This document shows positions 16,084 to 62,504 of a stretch of 64,000 nucleotides of DNA, piece by piece. Position 1 is the first letter of the stretch, and each line of letters starts with the position of its first letter. The position numbers and the translations under genes are program-made. Source of the stretch: an uncultured virus (IMG/VR IMGVR_UViG_3300028840_005337) (Duplodnaviria > Heunggongvirae > Uroviricota > Caudoviricetes). A model generated the notes under the pieces. The model did no database searches. It was not told the DNA's origin and saw only the letters and a program-made list of their open reading frames with translations. The stretch is taken from the IMG/VR virus record IMGVR_UViG_3300028840_005337, positions 62,001 to 126,000 of that record, one strand, 5' to 3'.

Positions 16084-16854
16084 ATGGAAACAAAATGTGC
16101 GCATGCGCAGCAGGACTGGGCGACAGCCTTACTGCAGCGACACGGCAAACTGATGGAAGTCGAGGAGATGGAGGCCCTCATTAAGAGGGGTAAGGCAGGG
16201 GACGACGACGCGCGGAACCGCGGGATTGCTGGTTGCTACAGGCTGGCCTTTCAACAGGCCTGGCGCGCAGCGTACAACGATCCCCACTTCTCCGTCGACG
16301 ATCTCTTCCAGGAGGCCGTGATCGGCCTCATGAAGGCAGTCGAGCGCTGGCGACCAGAAACGGGCAACCGATTCGTAACCGCTGCTTGGTTCTCGATCCA
16401 TGCCGCAATCTCATGGTACAAAAAGTGCCATAGGCGCCTCGTATACTACCCGCCCCGCTGGGACGAAAAGGGTGTCAAGCGGCCGGACTGGACTAAAGAC
16501 TGTCCGGAGCTGTTTGCAGACTACGTGTCGTTGCATAAACGCGTGGGCACGGGCAATAGGCGAAATCCCGGGATATTCGTGTACGAGATGATTGAAGACG
16601 AGACGCTGCGCGACTTCGTTGCCGACGTCGAGAGCGAGGACCAAGCCGATATGGTCTACGAGGCGTTCGAGAAGTTGACGGAGCGTGAAGTCGACATACT
16701 GCGGCGTCGCTATCTCGGCGACAAGCTTTGGGAGATCGGTAAAGTTTACGGAATCACCCGCGAACGTGTTCGGCAGTTGATCATCAAAGCCGAAAATATC
16801 ATCCACAATCACGTCTTGAAAGAGCAAATCGATGGAGACGCTGGTACTGCTTAA
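16084..16854 (+). CDS. RNA polymerase sigma70-family factor
   Basis: Region 2 DDLFQEAVIGLMKAVERW..GNRFVTAA; region 4 LTEREVDILRRRY..EIGKVYGITRERVRQ. Start uncertain. Confidence 0.92.
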   Translation: METKCAHAQQDWATALLQRHGKLMEVEEMEALIKRGKAGDDDARNRGIAGCYRLAFQQAWRAAYNDPHFSVDDLFQEAVIGLMKAVERWRPETGNRFVTAAWFSIHAAISWYKKCHRRLVYYPPRWDEKGVKRPDWTKDCPELFADYVSLHKRVGTGNRRNPGIFVYEMIEDETLRDFVADVESEDQADMVYEAFEKLTEREVDILRRRYLGDKLWEIGKVYGITRERVRQLIIKAENIIHNHVLKEQIDGDAGTA

Positions 16855-17257
16855 ACCCGATACGCTCAAACGGGGCCTGGTGGGGCGCGTCCTCACCAGG
16901 CTCGAGGATCGGGGCATCCGCTTCCTGCGGGTGAAAGAGTTGATCATGCTCCCCCGCCACTGCGAGGAGTTGTACGCAAAATTCAAGGGCGAGCCCTACC
17001 TGCCTCGCATCCAAGAATTTATGACCAGCGGCCCGATCGAGGCCCGTGTGGCGCACGCGCCGCACGCGCCCGACGACACGATCACGATCGTACGGTCTGC
17101 TGTTGGCAGCTTCACGGCACCCGCTGCAGGCACCATCCGTGGTGACTTCGGCGCTGTCCGCGAAAAGAACCTGATACACGCCAGCGACTCGCCAAGTGCG
17201 GCCAAAGTCGAAATCGAGATATTCTTCCCGGGGTTCCCTGGAGATGTCGGCGACTAG
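16832..17257 (+). CDS. ndk: Nucleoside diphosphate kinase
   Basis: TLVLLKPD, GTIRGDFG, NLIHASDS. Confidence 0.95.
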   Translation: METLVLLKPDTLKRGLVGRVLTRLEDRGIRFLRVKELIMLPRHCEELYAKFKGEPYLPRIQEFMTSGPIEARVAHAPHAPDDTITIVRSAVGSFTAPAAGTIRGDFGAVREKNLIHASDSPSAAKVEIEIFFPGFPGDVGD

Positions 17258-19729: not shown

Positions 19730-19744
19730 CCCGGGCGTTTGCCA

Positions 19745-20036
19745 CTCTCTGTCCTACACTTGCCACAGAGAGCGTGCCGGTTACCCCCTCCTAACCCGAG
19801 GGAAGGTGATCAGGCTCCGCGGTTCGTCCTTCATTGGGCGGCCGCGGCCTCGACCTGGGGTTCGGTCGGTTTGTGACGAACGCTAGTTGAATTCCCCCCA
19901 ATTTAACCAGTGGTACCGCCAAACCCCAGGTCACAAAGCATCAAAATGCGCGCCTTCTTGATGCCCTCAGAGGCGCGTGGGAAGATGCGTTCATGTACAG
20001 CGCCGCCCCACATCGTCGTGGGGCGGCGTCATTTCT
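19745..20036 (+). ncRNA. Candidate structured RNA with several hairpins and an H-type pseudoknot
   Basis: Stems CTCTCTGT/ACAGAGAG and GACCTGGGGTT/AACCCCAGGTC, pseudoknot 19938-19978, terminal GC-rich hairpin. Confidence 0.55.
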
Positions 20037-20055
20037 CACACATAGGAGAGGACAA

Positions 20056-20334
20056 GTGAACAAGGAAAAACTCGAGATGCTCAACGCTATGGGCGCCCTG
20101 CTGGACGACCCGGAGACCGTTGACGAGATCGACGAAGTGCTCGCCCGCGGCGTACAGCTGGTCGAACACGTGCTTGGCGCTATCGCCGACGCCCCGCGTG
20201 CGAAAGTGACGGCCGACCACATCGCGAAGCTGTGTCGGATGCAGTATCAATCGTTTTTGGACGCTGGCTTCAGCGACGGGCAGGCGTTTACGCTGCTGGT
20301 CGGCATCCGCGCCGGTCTCACGAAAATCAGTTGA
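20056..20334 (+). CDS. Hypothetical protein
   Basis: AGGAGAGG RBS, GTG start; YQSFLDAGFSDGQAFTL. Confidence 0.65.
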   Translation: MNKEKLEMLNAMGALLDDPETVDEIDEVLARGVQLVEHVLGAIADAPRAKVTADHIAKLCRMQYQSFLDAGFSDGQAFTLLVGIRAGLTKIS

Positions 20335-20337
20335 TAC

Positions 20338-20732
20338 ATGTGCGTGTGGGGCTGTGGGCTTAGAAGCAGCCATCAGCTAAGGAGTGGCGAGTGGAAGTGC
20401 TCTGGACCGGGTTAGCCGCCCGGCCACCACAAGATAACCGTGCAGCATGACCGTTGGCAACGGATCGGCGGCTTCGACTGGGCATGGTGTCACCACCGGG
20501 AAGCGACAGCGGATGCGACGCTACGACCGGCCACGTACTACCGAAAGGCTTCGGTCGCCGTAGCGAATCAGAGTTCGTGAAGTCAGAGGGATGCAGTTTG
20601 CTACGGTAGTACCAGCGGAGTCCGTAGTTAAGGTTGAGAGACGACAATCGAAGTGTCGGGAAAACAATGCTCTTCCAATGCTGTATTCGTAGCCCGTGGA
20701 GCCTTTGGCGTGACAGCACACCCCACGCACAT
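20338..20732 (+). ncRNA. Large structured RNA whose ends mimic the 23S rRNA GTPase-associated centre (H42-H44)
   Basis: 5' GGGGCTGTGGGCTTAGAAGCAGCCATCAGCTAAGGAGT and 3' GCGTGACAGCACACCC, closed by ATGTGCGTG/CACGCACAT and followed by a T tract. Confidence 0.75.
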
Positions 20733-20753
20733 TTTTACAAAAGGAGAGGAGTT

Positions 20754-21623
20754 ATGATCGCGCGAGCGAAACCCGGCTTCGACCCGGAGATCATTCGGTG
20801 TTCCGTGTTCGCTCTTCAGGTCTGCGTGCCTGCCACGTGGACTGACGAGGAGATCGAAGAGTTCGCTGAACAAGAGCACCCGGCCGGTGCTTTCGATGGG
20901 TGGCACATCCAGCGCGACGGGCCGTATCCGGAGCGCGTTTCATGCAATGACCGCGAGGGGTTCATCCACGTGGTCGTGGAGGTATAGATGGGTAAAAAAA
21001 CAATCTGTGACCTGTGTGGAGCCGACATCGAAAAAGGTGAGTGCTTTACGATAAACCTGCTGCCGCCCCGTAGTTTTAACGGGCGTGGCAAACACATCCG
21101 CACATGGGACGTCTGTCGCGAGTGCTTGGACTTTCCAATCAGCGGATCAAAAATGCGCAACGTGCTTCGGCGTCTCATCCCGGACTTCGTGCGCAGACTC
21201 TGGAAGAAGAGGATGTAGATGGGAATGGACGTTTCTGGAAAGAACCCCGACGCCCCCGTCGGTGAGTACTTCCGTGCGAACGTGTGGAGCTGGCGACCAA
21301 TCCACCAGCTGATGTGCAAGCTTTGCGGCGACCTGCTCTCTGAGGGGTTGCTGGAGCAGATGAGCTATAACGACGGCGCAGGCCCTGACGACCAGGAAAC
21401 CTGCACGCAAATGGCCATCAGGTTCTCCCAGTGGTTGGAGAAGAACCACAATGGGCACGCTGTCGATCTGGGGTGCTATTGTGCAGAGGGTACCGGACGC
21501 TTCGTAGGCGATGAAGAGCTCGCCCGCGGCGATCCGGTTGAAACCGCACACCGTACAAGTGATGCCCATCTGAAAAGTTGGGTACAATTTCTCCTCCATT
21601 GCGGAGGATTCGCAGTCGACTAG
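20754..21623 (+). CDS. Three small hypothetical genes (20754-20987; 20988-21218 with CxxC pairs; 21219-21623)
   Basis: Abutting TAG-ATG junctions with GGAG/GAGG RBSs. Confidence 0.65.
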
Positions 21624-23265: not shown

Positions 23266-24135
23266 TCCTATCGAGCGATTAGCATCGCTCGAGTCCAGAC
23301 ATTCCCTGTCGGCTCAAGAGCAGTTCGACATTATCTCCAACGCCGTCGACTTCGCGAAGAACTCGCCGTTGGCGTTCGTACAGTTCATCGACATCATGGA
23401 CGAGGAGCTGCAGTCGCCGCAGATGGCGGTTGCAGAGGTCAAAGACATGCTGCAGAACCCTGTGGCTGACCTCGAGGCTTTCTTCGACCGCGACCTGTCG
23501 TTGGCGTCGCTGAACAACCTCACCGAACTTGAGAGCTCCGGTGACGTGCCAGAGATGCCGTCGACCGATCTCATCAAATCAGCGGTGCTAGCAATGACGC
23601 CGTTCGACTACGAGCAGATGCGCTCCCATCTCACCATGACCGACTTCGACTCGGCCTACCACGAAGGCGCTATTGTCACCGGGTGTTACACCCGTTTTGA
23701 TGACGGTTCTATCGCTGCTGTCGCTCTCGTCCACGCCACCCCCGCTAACGGCGGGCCGTACCTTGATGCGTGGCTGTGCCTGCCCCCGGACAAGTTTCCG
23801 GATACGCTGAATCCGTCGTTGCCTGCCACAAGGGATATGGACCAGATCTTCGAGTTCCAGTATCCTGATGGCACGTATCGCGTAATCAAACTCGTATCCG
23901 CAGCTGGCCAACAGGAATGTCCAGGTACAACGACGACAGACACTGTGAGAAGCCACGAAGGTGCCTCCGGTGCATGAACATGTTCCTTTCCAAACATGCG
24001 GGCAACCGCATATGCCCGGACTGCACCGCGCATCCGCCGAATGTGAGCGGACTGCGTCGGGTGCACTTCGACCTTGACACCTATATGAGTCAGAAAGAGA
24101 AGGATGACAAATTCGACGGAAGAGCTGGCCTCTGA
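23240..24135 (+). CDS. Two hypothetical genes (23240-23977; 23917-24135 small Zn-ribbon protein)
   Basis: Chained ORFs; RRCLRC...NRICPDC in the second. Confidence 0.55.
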
Positions 24136-25615
24136 CGATTACGTCGTCGTCATTGGTCCCGTCATTGTCGATCGCTACTTCGTGGGCAAACCCAGACGAC
24201 TTGACCGTACGGCGCCGGTGCCTCTAATCGGCGTCACGGGACAGTTCTGGGCGCCCGGTGGCGGCGGCAATGCCGCAAACTGCTTGGCCCATCTGGCCCT
24301 CCCAACGACGTTCGTCGGCATGGTCGGAGACGACGACGCCGGCGAAGAGTATCTCAAGGCACCGATGCCTCCCAACCTGCAGCTGAAGGTTGGCAAATAC
24401 GCTAACTACAGCACCCCCGTAAAAACCCGCGTCTATGCCAACAATCGCCTTGTAGCACGGTTTGACGCGGACGATCCTTACACAGGGTCGTTCGAGTCTA
24501 CGACTGCGTCCTTATTTTTTAGCGCTGTGGCAGAGAAGCCGCCTTTGGCGATACTTATCAGCGACTACAACAAGGGGGTGTGCACGCCCGACATCATCGG
24601 GTCCGTGCTGCTCTACGGCGAGGATCACAACGTCCCCGTGATCGTGGACCCTGATCCGGCGCACACAGAGAGCTATCAGGGCGCTACGCTACTCACGCCG
24701 AACGCCGACGAGGCAATGCGGATGGCAGCGGCCTGCGGGTATGCAGATCGCGCAACCGATCCGGTCGAAGCAGCTGACTTCCTGGCCAACAAGTTCGATT
24801 GTGACGTCCTCGTCACGCTCGGCAGCCACGGAATGGTGCTGGTTCCGCCCCACGGGCAGGAACGGTTCCCGCTGCAAGCGCTGCCCGCCGCTGCGATCGA
24901 TACGTGCGGTTGCGGAGATGCTGTGGCGTCGGCGATGACCTACGGGATTGCCACCGGAATGAACGCACGCACGGCTACGCGCTTTGCAAACGTGTCCGGT
25001 TCGCTATGCTGCGAGATCATTGGTGCTATGCCCATCCCGCTGCACCGCCTCAACCAACGCGTGACGCTGTCGCTCGGGCTCGATCGAAAGGTCGTGACCC
25101 TCGACGAGCTGCGTCTCCTGCGGCAATCCGTCGCCGTCGCCGGCGAAATCTTCGGGGTTGCCAACGGCGTGTTCGACGGCGTCCACGACGGGCACACCTC
25201 GCTGCTACGGCAGGCCAGGGAGCATTGTGACTTCCTGGCGGTGCTCGTGAACACTGACGAATCGGCGGAGCGCATCAAGCGCCGACCGCAACACAGTCAG
25301 ATAGCCCGTTCGCTCAGCCTGGCGGCGCATCCGTTGGTGGATGCGGTGCTGCTGTTCGACGGCGATAACGCAGTACCAGAGTATCAGGCGTTGCAGCCCG
25401 ATATCATGGTAAAAGGGCCGGACTACAAGGATAGGGAAGACCTGCTACCGGAAGCTGCGGTGCTGCCTGAATGGGGCGGCGAGCTGCGGTTGGCCGAGCT
25501 AGAGGTCGACGTCAGTAGTACCCAACTGCGGGAAGAAGATGAGGCCCTCAAAGAGAGCACTGCGCCAGGAGAGACTGAAGACAGCGCTGGAGGAGCTGGA
25601 GACGCTGCGGACTGA
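24104..25615 (+). CDS. hldE: Bifunctional heptose-7-phosphate kinase / heptose-1-phosphate adenylyltransferase
   Basis: PfkB domain (PGGGGNAA, ISDYNKGV, LTPN, DTCGCGD) followed by nucleotidyltransferase domain (NGVFDGVHDGH, VNTDES, PDIMVKGPDY, SST). Confidence 0.9.
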   Translation: MTNSTEELASDDYVVVIGPVIVDRYFVGKPRRLDRTAPVPLIGVTGQFWAPGGGGNAANCLAHLALPTTFVGMVGDDDAGEEYLKAPMPPNLQLKVGKYANYSTPVKTRVYANNRLVARFDADDPYTGSFESTTASLFFSAVAEKPPLAILISDYNKGVCTPDIIGSVLLYGEDHNVPVIVDPDPAHTESYQGATLLTPNADEAMRMAAACGYADRATDPVEAADFLANKFDCDVLVTLGSHGMVLVPPHGQERFPLQALPAAAIDTCGCGDAVASAMTYGIATGMNARTATRFANVSGSLCCEIIGAMPIPLHRLNQRVTLSLGLDRKVVTLDELRLLRQSVAVAGEIFGVANGVFDGVHDGHTSLLRQAREHCDFLAVLVNTDESAERIKRRPQHSQIARSLSLAAHPLVDAVLLFDGDNAVPEYQALQPDIMVKGPDYKDREDLLPEAAVLPEWGGELRLAELEVDVSSTQLREEDEALKESTAPGETEDSAGGAGDAAD

Positions 25616-25844
25616 ACTCGCCTTCGACGAGATCACCGTAACGCTCAGCGACTTCCAACGACACTGGCAGTTCAAATATGGCGACAAGCATTTGGCGGAC
25701 TGGTGGCCAGCTTCTGCGAAGGGACAGCTCACAGGGTCACAAGACTCCGTCGACTGTGTGAGCACGTCTCAAGCGCAGAAGCTGGCCATCGCCGCTAAGA
25801 AGAAGCTGTTTACCGAGATTCGGCAGGCGCTTCAGCAGAGGTGA
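25539..25844 (+). CDS. Hypothetical protein
   Basis: ORF overlapping the hldE end; HWQFKYG...DWWP. Confidence 0.55.
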   Translation: MRPSKRALRQERLKTALEELETLRTELAFDEITVTLSDFQRHWQFKYGDKHLADWWPASAKGQLTGSQDSVDCVSTSQAQKLAIAAKKKLFTEIRQALQQR

Positions 25845-25983
25845 GCTCCTCTCGCAGGATTTGTACATCCGGCGGGGCGTCGACACCGAGGCGGATCCGA
25901 TCACGACCAGTGCGGATGACCGTGACGGTGATGTCGTCGCCAATCTTGATCTGCTCACCTTCTTTGCGGGACAGGACCAACAT
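25810..25983 (-). CDS. csrA: Carbon storage regulator CsrA (57 aa)
   Basis: Manual translation MLVLSRKEGEQIKIGDDITVTVIRTGRDRIRLGVDAPPDVQILREELTSAEAPAESR; AAGGAGG RBS; below the ORF-track size cut-off. Confidence 0.93.
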   Translation of the reverse strand: MLVLSRKEGEQIKIGDDITVTVIRTGRDRIRLGVDAPPDVQILREELTSAEAPAESR

Positions 25984-60506: not shown

Positions 60507-62504
60507 ATGAGCTTCCTCATCCCATCGTTTGCTGGCGGGACCAATCGGGGTTCGCAGAACATCGAGCCCTTCCCCGACCCCTTCTGCGACTACGCGTCGA
60601 CGCGTATGCCCGAGTCCCTGGAGAATGCTCTCCGGTGGTGCGAGTACATCATGCTGGCCAACGGCATCTACCGATCGGCGGTGGACCGAGTGGTCTCGTA
60701 CTTCATTACCGAGGTGGAGATCGATGGGACCGATCGGGACGGCAAGGAGAAGTACCTTGACTTCCTGAACAACACGCTGGGCATCAACTCGATCCTTCGG
60801 CAGACGGCGCTCGACTACGTCACCTACGGGAACTTCTTCAACTCGCTGGTTGTGCCATTCAGACGGCACCTGCGCTGCCCAGGCTGCGGCTTCGAGGCGC
60901 CTCTCGACCGGATCCACGGCAACGACAAGTTCAACTTCTCGTGGAGCGGCTTCGAGTTCAACGCCAACTGCCCCTTCTGCAGCTACCACGGCAAGTGGGC
61001 GCACAAGGACAGGCGATCGACCGAGGAAGACGACATCATCATCAAGCGCTGGAGCCCGCACGAGATGGAACTCGTCTGGGACCCGTACACCGACCAAGTC
61101 GGGCACGTGTGGCGCATCCCGAATCACTACAAGAAGTACATCAACCAAGGAACCTTGTTCCATCTGGAGCGTGCGCCGTGGGAGGTCCTGCAGGCGATCA
61201 AGAACAACACGCATATCCAGTTCAACAAGGACATCATCTACCACGGCAAGGAAGATACCCTGGCTGGCGTGCTGAACAAGGGCTGGGGCGTCAGCCGTAT
61301 CCTGACGAACTTCCGTCAGGCGTGGTACGTCCAAGTGCTTCACCGCTACAACGAGGCGATCGGCCTCGACTACATCATCCCATTCAGGGTGATTACGCCC
61401 GAGCCGCGTCCGGGCGGGGCCGGCGGTGGTGGTGAGTCAACGGACCCGCTGTTCACCGCTGACCTCGGCGGCTTCGTAGGCCAAGTCAACTCGATGCTGC
61501 GCCAACGGCGGCGTGACCCGACCATGTGGTTCACCATGCCGTTCCCGCTGAAATACCAGACTCTCGGGGGGGAAGCTAGCCAGTTGGCCCCGTATCAGCT
61601 CATGGACCAGGCCGTGGATGGCCTCCTGACGTCCGTAGGCGTCCCTGTGGAGCTCTACAAGGGTACGATGAGTCTCCAGGCTGCCCCGGCCGCGCTGCGG
61701 CTCCTGGAGAGCACCTGGAGCCACCTGACGACGATGCTGAACAACTACCTCCAGTGGCTGGTCAACAAAATCAGCGTGGCGCTGTCCTGGGACGAGGTTA
61801 CGGCCACCCTGGCCAAGCCGTCGCACGCGGACGATCTGAACCGTCAGCTGGCCAAGCTCCAGCTCATGATGGGACAGTCGATCAGCCAGACGACTGGCCT
61901 CAAGAGCGTCGGCCTCAAGTTCGAGGACGAGCAGCGCCGCATGCTCGACGAGCAGAAGTTCATCGCCGAGGAATCGCAGAAGACACAAGAGGAGCTGGAA
62001 GCCTCGGGCATGGGCGATGCAATGGCGCAAGGCATGATGGGCCCCGGAGGCCAACCGACCGATCCTGCTGCGGCAGGCATGGGTGGCCCTGGTGGTTCCG
62101 CACCTCCGCAAGGCGGTGCACCTCCGGCCGGCGGCGCACCGGGTGGCGCTATGCCTCCTCCAGGCGCAGAAGCCGGAATGGCGCCGATGGACCCGATTCA
62201 GGCCATCATGGCACAAATACCTCTGGGCAATGAGCAAAGCCTCACGCCGCCAGAGCTGGAGCAGATCGCCAACACGGTTGCCGAGCAGATCTACGGACTG
62301 CCCGGCGGGCAACGTGTATCCGCGCTGCGACAACTCAAGCAGGCGTCGCCCACCATTCACAGCCTGGTCAAGAGCCTTCTCGAACAGAAAGACTCGCAGG
62401 CTGAGTCCCAAGGCCGCATGATGGGCCAAGAGCAAGCTATGCAGATGCAACAGCAGAGCATGGCTCCACCCCCGCCGATGGGGCCGGGTGGTGGGATGAT
62501 GTAG
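60507..62504 (+). CDS. Probable portal protein with Zn-ribbon insertion
   Basis: 665 aa; YRSAVDRVVSY, ALDYVTYGNFF, GWGVSRIL, VGVPVEL pattern and Gly/Pro/Met-rich tail as seen in phage portals; CPGC..CPFC insert. Confidence 0.6.
   Translation: MSFLIPSFAGGTNRGSQNIEPFPDPFCDYASTRMPESLENALRWCEYIMLANGIYRSAVDRVVSYFITEVEIDGTDRDGKEKYLDFLNNTLGINSILRQTALDYVTYGNFFNSLVVPFRRHLRCPGCGFEAPLDRIHGNDKFNFSWSGFEFNANCPFCSYHGKWAHKDRRSTEEDDIIIKRWSPHEMELVWDPYTDQVGHVWRIPNHYKKYINQGTLFHLERAPWEVLQAIKNNTHIQFNKDIIYHGKEDTLAGVLNKGWGVSRILTNFRQAWYVQVLHRYNEAIGLDYIIPFRVITPEPRPGGAGGGGESTDPLFTADLGGFVGQVNSMLRQRRRDPTMWFTMPFPLKYQTLGGEASQLAPYQLMDQAVDGLLTSVGVPVELYKGTMSLQAAPAALRLLESTWSHLTTMLNNYLQWLVNKISVALSWDEVTATLAKPSHADDLNRQLAKLQLMMGQSISQTTGLKSVGLKFEDEQRRMLDEQKFIAEESQKTQEELEASGMGDAMAQGMMGPGGQPTDPAAAGMGGPGGSAPPQGGAPPAGGAPGGAMPPPGAEAGMAPMDPIQAIMAQIPLGNEQSLTPPELEQIANTVAEQIYGLPGGQRVSALRQLKQASPTIHSLVKSLLEQKDSQAESQGRMMGQEQAMQMQQQSMAPPPPMGPGGGMM

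Follow-up and report, generated by a model that had tools for sequence, protein, structure and literature searches.

The window analysed here is a stretch of 64,000 nucleotides, positions 62,001 to 126,000 of the IMG/VR virus record IMGVR_UViG_3300028840_005337, which comprises 133,609 bases and is 62% complete. A predicted RNA gene of 395 nt lies on its plus strand at 20338-20732, where all motifs quoted in an earlier note on this DNA were located, and is present as a single copy within the virus record. It sits between two short ORFs (20056-20334 and 20754-20987), both devoid of a Pfam match, and about 28 kb from the four tRNA genes of the record, which also encodes a sigma factor, an NDK, an SbcCD-like protein, a helicase, and a family A polymerase. 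Promoter and terminator scans returned nothing for the 395-nt RNA; a tract of five T (20732-20736), at which the terminator scan made no call, follows its closing helix. Elsewhere in the window, an NDK gene (16832-17257), a bifunctional PfkB and cytidylyltransferase gene (HldE-like, 24104-25615), and a 57-aa ORF that appears CsrA-like by eye and gave no match in the Pfam search (25810-25983) were observed. The gene-free stretch upstream of the element (19730-20050) folds into several long hairpins (-152 kcal/mol, z -5.8 relative to shuffles); among the fetched loci it matched only identical copies of the same phage, and it is possibly another RNA or a regulatory leader.

The two ends of the RNA correspond to the GTPase-associated centre of 23S rRNA. 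Window bases were mapped on an E. coli 23S rRNA record that runs one base below the standard numbering in this region, and are quoted in what we take to be that standard numbering. The positions A1067, A1095, and 1052-1108 given in the accessible part of PMC1802607 agree with it. On this mapping, G1055, A1067, and U1090 are equivalent to window positions 20350, 20362, and 20385, respectively. The 5′ half of the centre (1055-1090, at 20350-20385) comprises the stem 1057-1059/1079-1081, H43 (20357-20371), and the C1082-G1086 pair, as judged from the 23S mapping, covariation, and comparison with L377, a relative that is 92% identical to the window element. The 3′ half (1091-1104, at 20708-20721), recognized by motif match and covariation, supplies H44, in which base 1095 is G and base 1101 is A. 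Both the H43 match and the H44-like part had been claimed in the earlier note, and both were found at their proposed places. The same holds for the proposed H42-equivalent stem of 12 bp ahead of the T tract: the closing helix (20338-20350 with 20721-20732) has 12 bp and one bulge, is supported by covariation and by three compensatory changes relative to L377, and lacks the kink-turn of its ribosomal counterpart.

Between U1090 and G1091, the centre is interrupted by an insert of 322 nt (20386-20707). This is closed by P1 (20386-20388 with 20701-20703) and is connected to H44 through a four-base linker (20704-20707) that reads TTTG in 170 of 183 unique elements. Domain A (20391-20496), delineated by alignment and comparison with L377, is closed by P2 (20391-20394 with 20493-20496) and contains a hairpin at 20407-20423; domain B (20497-20696) is closed by P3 (20497-20500 with 20693-20696), which abuts P2 and shows two-sided changes in 4/4 pairs. 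Within domain B lies a hairpin resembling the sarcin-ricin loop (SRL) of 23S rRNA (20600-20628), with a 7-bp stem and the AGUA and GGA strands of the S-turn retained, and with the tetraloop CAGC (20613-20616) in place of GAGA. Based on homolog counts and comparison with L377, its junction is closed by a helix of 20589-20597 with 20680-20688, presumably positioned like H94 of 23S domain VI. Upstream, a hairpin identified by folding and L377 comparison (20519-20565) carries two anti-SRL strands in its loop, strand a (20535-20543) being complementary to the SRL 5′ strand (20604-20612) and strand b (20547-20553) to the SRL 3′ strand (20616-20622). On the 3′ side of the SRL, a further hairpin (20642-20658) shows a compensatory A-U to G-C change in L377. 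Taken together, motif positions, covariation, and alignment characterize the gene as a split mimic of the GTPase-associated centre with an SRL-bearing insert.

No Rfam family was found to cover this molecule. At the gathering score the window gave no Rfam match, and at E up to 10 only three weak matches appeared (E 3-4); scans of six cultured-phage loci and 20 diverse members of the family returned only tRNA, tmRNA, and one contaminant rRNA. In the window and the members scanned, none of the Rfam 15 covariance models matched the element, including those of GOLLD, ROOL, and OLE. A full-length match to a described family, which the earlier note had named as evidence against its reading, is therefore absent from Rfam; a full LSU match was lacking as well, as that note foresaw, while the split, partial LSU matches that it expected did not appear at the gathering score. 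Contamination by host 23S rRNA, or a fragment of it, was ruled out by the lack of any LSU match in the window and by flanks consisting of phage ORFs; a true contaminant, L005 (MZ092003.1), scores 2619 bits to the LSU model. The latter is a host 23S rRNA deposited in a phage record, and several short "phage" records appear to contain such sequence as well.

Ribosomal-protein leaders that mimic rRNA are an obvious point of comparison. As described in the available part of PMC10931766, the rplJ leader for uL10-bL12 and the L1 site of rplK-rplA are likewise RNA copies of rRNA protein-binding sites, and no uL11-site mimic is listed there. These are cis elements upstream of ribosomal-protein operons, whereas the phage RNA has no fixed downstream gene, has no kink-turn, and copies the uL11 site. 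An autoregulatory leader was accordingly rejected for the window copy: the downstream ORF has no Pfam match, no neighbour is conserved, and a uL11 gene is absent from the virus record at its 62% completeness. Full-text searches of the published literature, whose coverage is short on subscription papers, found no description of the family. Term searches of the accessible portions of 10.64898/2026.09.22.753630, PMC10690425, and PMC10085705 gave no mention of it, nor did the six available supplementary files of PMC10690425 contain a match; pieces of the family may be present, unnamed, among the 10,006 candidates of PMC10690425.

Relatives of the element were readily found, and together they form a widespread RNA gene family of large phages. 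A blastn search of cultured phages yielded 12 short matches, and of the six inspected, five share the split architecture and one is a contaminating 23S gene. The architecture is present in unannotated DNA of XaC1, CBB, UNO-G1W1, XacN1, and GAP32; pf16, Astolliot, 4_4572, and a Vibrio phage provide further members, and full-length matches occur in BF, XbC2, Kaldavass, and six pEa_SNUABM records. Scanning IMG/VR with the 3′ half alone returned at least 120 loci, with about 270 estimated from one strict pattern, and both halves were present in 104 of 126 matches of the 3′-half scan, many of the misses being loci with just 300 bases of flank. Conversely, among 76 loci from a scan with the 5′ half only, 74 carry the 3′ half after an insert, one is truncated, one is without it, and none is uninterrupted, so the split match exceeds chance. 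One 3′ pattern run on 185,579 cellular genomes gave 69 matches, 34 of which have both halves (one misparse dropped); most of these lie on contigs assembled from metagenomes, with neighbours, in the few cases scanned, of types often seen in phage tRNA regions. The misparsed locus L326 was left out of the covariation set and of later counts.

This survey bears directly on excision of the insert, the second proposal of the earlier note. If the insert were an intron or intervening sequence, its removal would restore the domain exactly and yield a clean 58-nt GTPase centre, and the U-then-G boundaries of most members do look like the splice sites of group I introns. Rfam scans, however, found neither intron nor ribozyme over the insert, inserts can be as short as 41 nt, the last insert base is A in 6/183 members, and insert-less alleles number zero, a direct scan for an uninterrupted phage-type form having found none. 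Furthermore, some members have another insertion site, at 1077/1078, that is reminiscent of expansion segments. No match to the group I catalytic core P3-P7 appeared in the window, whether at the gathering score or with E values up to 10, nor in 20 diverse members. Group I introns and intervening sequences of LSU rRNA are likewise inserted inside an rRNA helix, whereas the phage insert has neither catalytic core nor empty allele and its carrier is a mini-gene rather than an rRNA gene. Excision is scarcely tenable on these observations. Although it would work in the manner of an rRNA mimic, the element is neither an rRNA gene nor a ribosomal-protein leader, and it falls outside the group I introns and the families of Rfam 15.

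The structural case rests on covariation, since the single-sequence fold of the 395-nt element is unremarkable (z -1.57). Among 160 non-redundant members, the 16 column pairs (of 3570) with the highest corrected mutual information, a measure that ignores shared descent, all belong to predicted helices or to the tertiary pair 1082-1086. They include the insert-closing stem, the closing helix, 1058-1080 (rank 2), 1057-1081, 1055-1104, and 1082-1086 (rank 5); most covarying columns were free in the search patterns, while 1082/1086 were fixed in the 5′-half scan, and the search patterns and the parser partly account for the invariance of some columns. Homologs therefore do covary, the contrary of which would have counted against the original reading. 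The flank changes first described as compensatory proved to be true pair changes, C1057-G1081 and C1082-G1086. The C-G variant at 1082-1086 is indeed present, but it is not special within the family, in which C-G (73 of 160) stands beside U-A (58) and A-U (19). Comparison with L377 agrees with this picture: 16 of the 32 differences from the window element form eight compensatory pairs, while five pairs change on one side and four break.

The tertiary features of the ribosomal domain appear to be retained as well. Position 1072 turns to U only with U at 1092 (5/185, U-A in three and U-G in two, from few independent lineages), with C accompanying C-G in the other 180; this is the pattern expected of 1072/1092-1099, which we take to be a base triple of the GTPase centre. 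U1060, A1088, G1059, and A1077 are kept in 159-160 of 160 members (partly parser-fixed), 1060 and 1088 being invariant and thus uninformative on pairing, and the first insert pair of P1 is canonical in 160/160, partly a product of selecting true elements. Covariation and alignment place the secondary structure of the H42 tip, H43, and H44 in the window element. In summary, the phage RNA shares with the 23S GTPase-associated centre (H42 tip, H43, and H44, about 1051-1108, the uL11/thiostrepton site) its sequence, helices, 1082-1086 pair, 1060/1088 identities, and 1072 triple pattern, but differs in being free-standing, split at 1090/1091, with A at 1101, without the H42 kink-turn, and with variable 1067 and 1095 loops. 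A1067 and A1095 belong to the thiostrepton site according to the accessible part of PMC1802607; A1067 is found in 143/185 members, and the window copy has A1067 but G1095, so the two bases do not occur together in it.

These features indicate which proteins the RNA could bind. In the available portions of PMC1802607 and PMC6239185, uL11 is described to bind the 58-nt domain via its C-terminal domain and to need the tertiary fold, whereas the uL10-bL12 site needs a kink-turn according to the part of PMC10931766 at hand. Across the 160 members the closing stem covaries as an ordinary helix and conserves neither G nor A where the kink would lie; without the H42 kink-turn, binding of uL10 appears unlikely. 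No shared protein neighbour emerged among 939 adjacent ORFs, the largest cluster (7/190) being HNH, and this, together with the lack of a uL11 gene in the virus record, suggests that the protein partner of the RNA is probably the host's. One reading is that the RNA acts mainly as a sponge that sequesters uL11 and thereby deprives new ribosomes of it, with the result that (p)ppGpp synthesis is blunted and termination is changed, the inserts being secondary. In line with this, the part that varies least is the core facing uL11, while the loops turned toward factors vary and the kink-turn for uL10 is gone; uL11 is also required for RelA activation. Nevertheless, few ribosomes are made in a lytic cycle, and the sponge leaves unexplained both the elaborate covarying 300-nt insert with its SRL and the absence of an insert-less version, which makes it a distinctly unlikely reading. 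The accessible part of PMC1802607 additionally assigns uL11 a role in EF-G GTP hydrolysis and RF1 termination.

The insert itself contains a second ribosomal element. In a comparison of sliding 14-base words from E. coli 23S, 16S, and 5S rRNA with the 160 inserts, which had been gathered without an SRL pattern, the SRL was the sole enriched segment (23S 2653-2666, in nine inserts against a maximum of four in three shuffles); other rRNA look-alikes (H69, H89, H91, and 3′-end motifs) were not supported by word enrichment. SRL scans in which the S-turn strands were fixed and the four loop bases left free allowed full elements to be parsed at 11/26 and 39/43 loci. Of the 39 SRL hairpins, 24 have a GAGA tetraloop, 26 a GNRA tetraloop, and 36 at least five of six stem pairs, and two-sided changes occur in 6/7 pairs of the stem (alignment A1). 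Compared with the SRL of 23S rRNA (H95, 2646-2674), the phage inserts thus share the AGUA and GGA strands, a covarying stem, and in most homologs the GAGA tip. The window SRL lies at the homologous place and retains the stem and bulged-G strands, but its tip is CAGC (UAGC in L377) rather than a GNRA tetraloop, and the phage hairpin is paired with a cis anti-SRL strand. The reverse of the window pattern, a strongly changed H43 with a perfect GAGA SRL, was observed in L211, L217, L219, L229, L232, L235, and L213.

An alignment of 30 long members supports a three-way junction of P1, P2, and P3 together with the SRL stem, 96% of cells being paired and 20/29 pairs showing two-sided changes, far above slid controls; P2 plus P3 was found in 37/45 sequences when the best site per sequence was chosen, a count that has no control. 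The helix closing the SRL junction (20589-20597/20680-20688) reaches at least 6 bp in 35/39 homologs (shuffled mean 16, maximum 24). It displaces the stem TGCAGCAT/ATGCTGTA of the earlier note as the conserved one, for the downstream strand pairs with 20589-20597 in 35/39 homologs and with the upstream site in only 13/39. The strand CGGTAGTAC, previously assigned to a possible pseudoknot, does pair with 20535-20543; what had gone unrecognized is that it is the 5′ strand of the SRL.

Inserts range from 41 to 445 nt and fall into several classes: of 190 members, 33 carry an SRL in a P3-type insert, 25 share a different conserved motif, and 111 lie outside both classes. The SRL is hence not essential to the family, as far as sequence tells. 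The second class (25/190; e.g., L104:191-332 and L003:1483-1688) has a conserved CACCCC-hairpin-GGTAAGG directly before the closing stem; it occurs in pf16, UNO-G1W1, Astolliot, and 4_4572 and has no rRNA match. A third recurring motif pair, GCGAAATG-like and TGATGTGC-like, appears kink-turn-like by eye (L015, L041, L066, L079, L157, L320, L333, and L336). The variable, expansion-segment-like insertion site at 1077/1078 of the scaffold was seen in L010, L030, L036, L057, L267, and L270. Two copies with different insert classes occupy one phage in four cases (L016:1019-1538, L069:1487-2027, L161:1298-1800, and L300), in tandem in three of the four.

One constant scaffold carrying several unrelated insert classes of 41-445 nt, at times as two differently loaded copies per phage (L069, L161, L300, and L016), could be taken as a handle with a payload. 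The GTPase-centre fold with uL11 would then be a stable platform, and the variable insert would act, for example by docking on ribosomes or engaging translation GTPases in favour of phage translation. However, the SRL, which works together with the scaffold on the ribosome, is the single recognizable payload; this suggests a common purpose of the two, and we consider the handle explanation unlikely. Alternatively, since one small molecule holds both halves of the factor-binding centre, the RNA might be a repair patch that provides, in trans, a GTPase centre and an SRL for ribosomes in which a host defence has cut or modified these sites. Genes of RNA-repair type (2′-5′ RNA ligase; TROVE, CCA-adding-like, and Pth2) do occur near a few members, and fragmented rRNAs function in trans in apicomplexan mitoribosomes according to the available part of PMC10948144. 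The patch nonetheless has a very slim chance: no strands that would anchor it to the 50S subunit were found, the SRL is the only rRNA-like part of the inserts, the tip of the window SRL is changed, and the stalk kink-turn is missing.

The anti-SRL strands add a dynamic aspect. Strand a pairs over at least 8 bp in 16/39 homologs (shuffled mean 2.8, maximum 9) and strand b over at least 6 bp in 36/39 (shuffled mean 18, maximum 26), mostly at fixed distances from the SRL. Two-sided changes were found in 5/9 pairs of strand a and 4/7 pairs of strand b, and the anti-SRL helices are paired in 75-78% of cells (78% for strand a), compared with 93% for the SRL hairpin. The anti-SRL pairing and the full SRL hairpin are mutually exclusive, and both show compensatory changes, which suggests that the SRL arm is a switch or an ordered folding step; a nested model gives -136.4 and -138.4 kcal/mol for the two states. 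We know of no counterpart of a cis anti-SRL strand in rRNA.

Strands a and b could also pair between molecules, as they would if the RNA were an ornate, protein-free assembly that borrows rRNA modules for folding or self-assembly. The genomic setting is compatible with this idea. A tRNA or tmRNA gene lies within 1 kb of 81/144 members with full flanks and within 60 bases of 49, and 324/329 of the tRNA/tmRNA genes near members are on the same strand. Chance-match viral control loci, not matched for genome size, had a tRNA nearby in 0/30, and the nine of 39 control loci that did have tRNAs were themselves divergent members (eight with both halves, one with a worn 5′ half). The phage tRNA-cluster niche is thus shared with GOLLD and ROOL, likewise large structured phage RNAs near tRNA genes with unknown function, from which the present RNA differs in being built on rRNA modules and in lacking an Rfam match. 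GOLLD, ROOL, and OLE form RNA-only oligomers, as stated in the accessible part of PMC12286853. However, the base identities of the uL11 site are kept far past pairing needs, in 159-160 of 160 members even if partly parser-fixed, which leaves a protein-free assembly only a slim chance.

The reading we prefer, at about even chances of being correct, is that the locus yields a free-standing RNA, its ends predicted to fold as the uL11-binding GTPase centre and its insert carrying an SRL, which would act away from the ribosome as a decoy and capture host proteins that recognize the factor-binding centre. The match to H43/H44 and to the SRL is a matter of sequence. Strong covariation argues for ends folded like their 23S rRNA counterparts, tertiary pairs included, and for an insert that branches at 1090/1091 via a short stem and four-base linker. 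The RNA would be cut from a phage transcript, by tRNA-operon processing in most relatives, with the window copy perhaps ended at its T tract. By the known binding rules, host uL11 would bind and uL10-bL12 probably would not, the kink-turn being gone, and the exclusive covarying pairings suggest that the SRL arm would switch from an exposed hairpin to a form opened by strands a and b, and back. We hypothesize that the intercepted protein would most likely be a translation-arresting defence effector or stress sensor, such as a nuclease or modifier of the rRNA surface or a RelA-type enzyme, whose neutralization would let phage translation continue.

The ribosome-mimic half of the earlier note's interpretation is thereby supported by covariation of the whole fold, including tertiary contacts, and strengthened by the SRL, while its excision half found no support. 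Several observations speak against the decoy. The factor-facing surfaces drift, A1067 being kept in only 143/185 members, and G1095 and CAGC for GAGA make the window copy a poor fit to a faithful decoy; moreover, most members lack an SRL, strand a is found in under half of the SRL members, and the window copy lies about 28 kb from the nearest tRNA gene. A possible, though doubtful, alternative is a switchable mini factor-binding centre, in which a uL11-bound GTPase centre and an SRL kept unzipped by a cis strand until triggered would then trap or retune translation GTPases, RelA, or ribosome-attacking defence enzymes, or stand in for damaged rRNA. Phage RNA counter-defences offer a parallel to the decoy: phage tRNAs counter anticodon nucleases, the pseudo-ToxI repeats of phage TE are another RNA counter-defence, and the mode proposed here is alike, with a phage RNA copying a host RNA to blunt a translation-directed defence. 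To our knowledge, no rRNA-domain decoy of this kind has been described, and our literature searches turned up none.

Phage tRNAs are established answers to host defences that attack translation. If the decoy reading is true, a phage copy of the ribosomal factor-docking surface would reveal an unrecognized front in infection, that of host proteins attacking or sensing H43/H44 and the SRL, and the RNA would be a bait with which such proteins could be fished out. If the switch reading is true, this would be the first case of a virus imitating a functional centre of the ribosome in RNA, as well as a natural two-hairpin strand-exchange switch. The family also supplies naturally occurring variants of the uL11 site, and its members show a large insertion at 1090/1091 to be compatible with the fold. 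It is large and stands unannotated in cultured phages, among them pf16, UNO-G1W1, BF, GAP32, CBB, and 4_4572, and is thus testable now.
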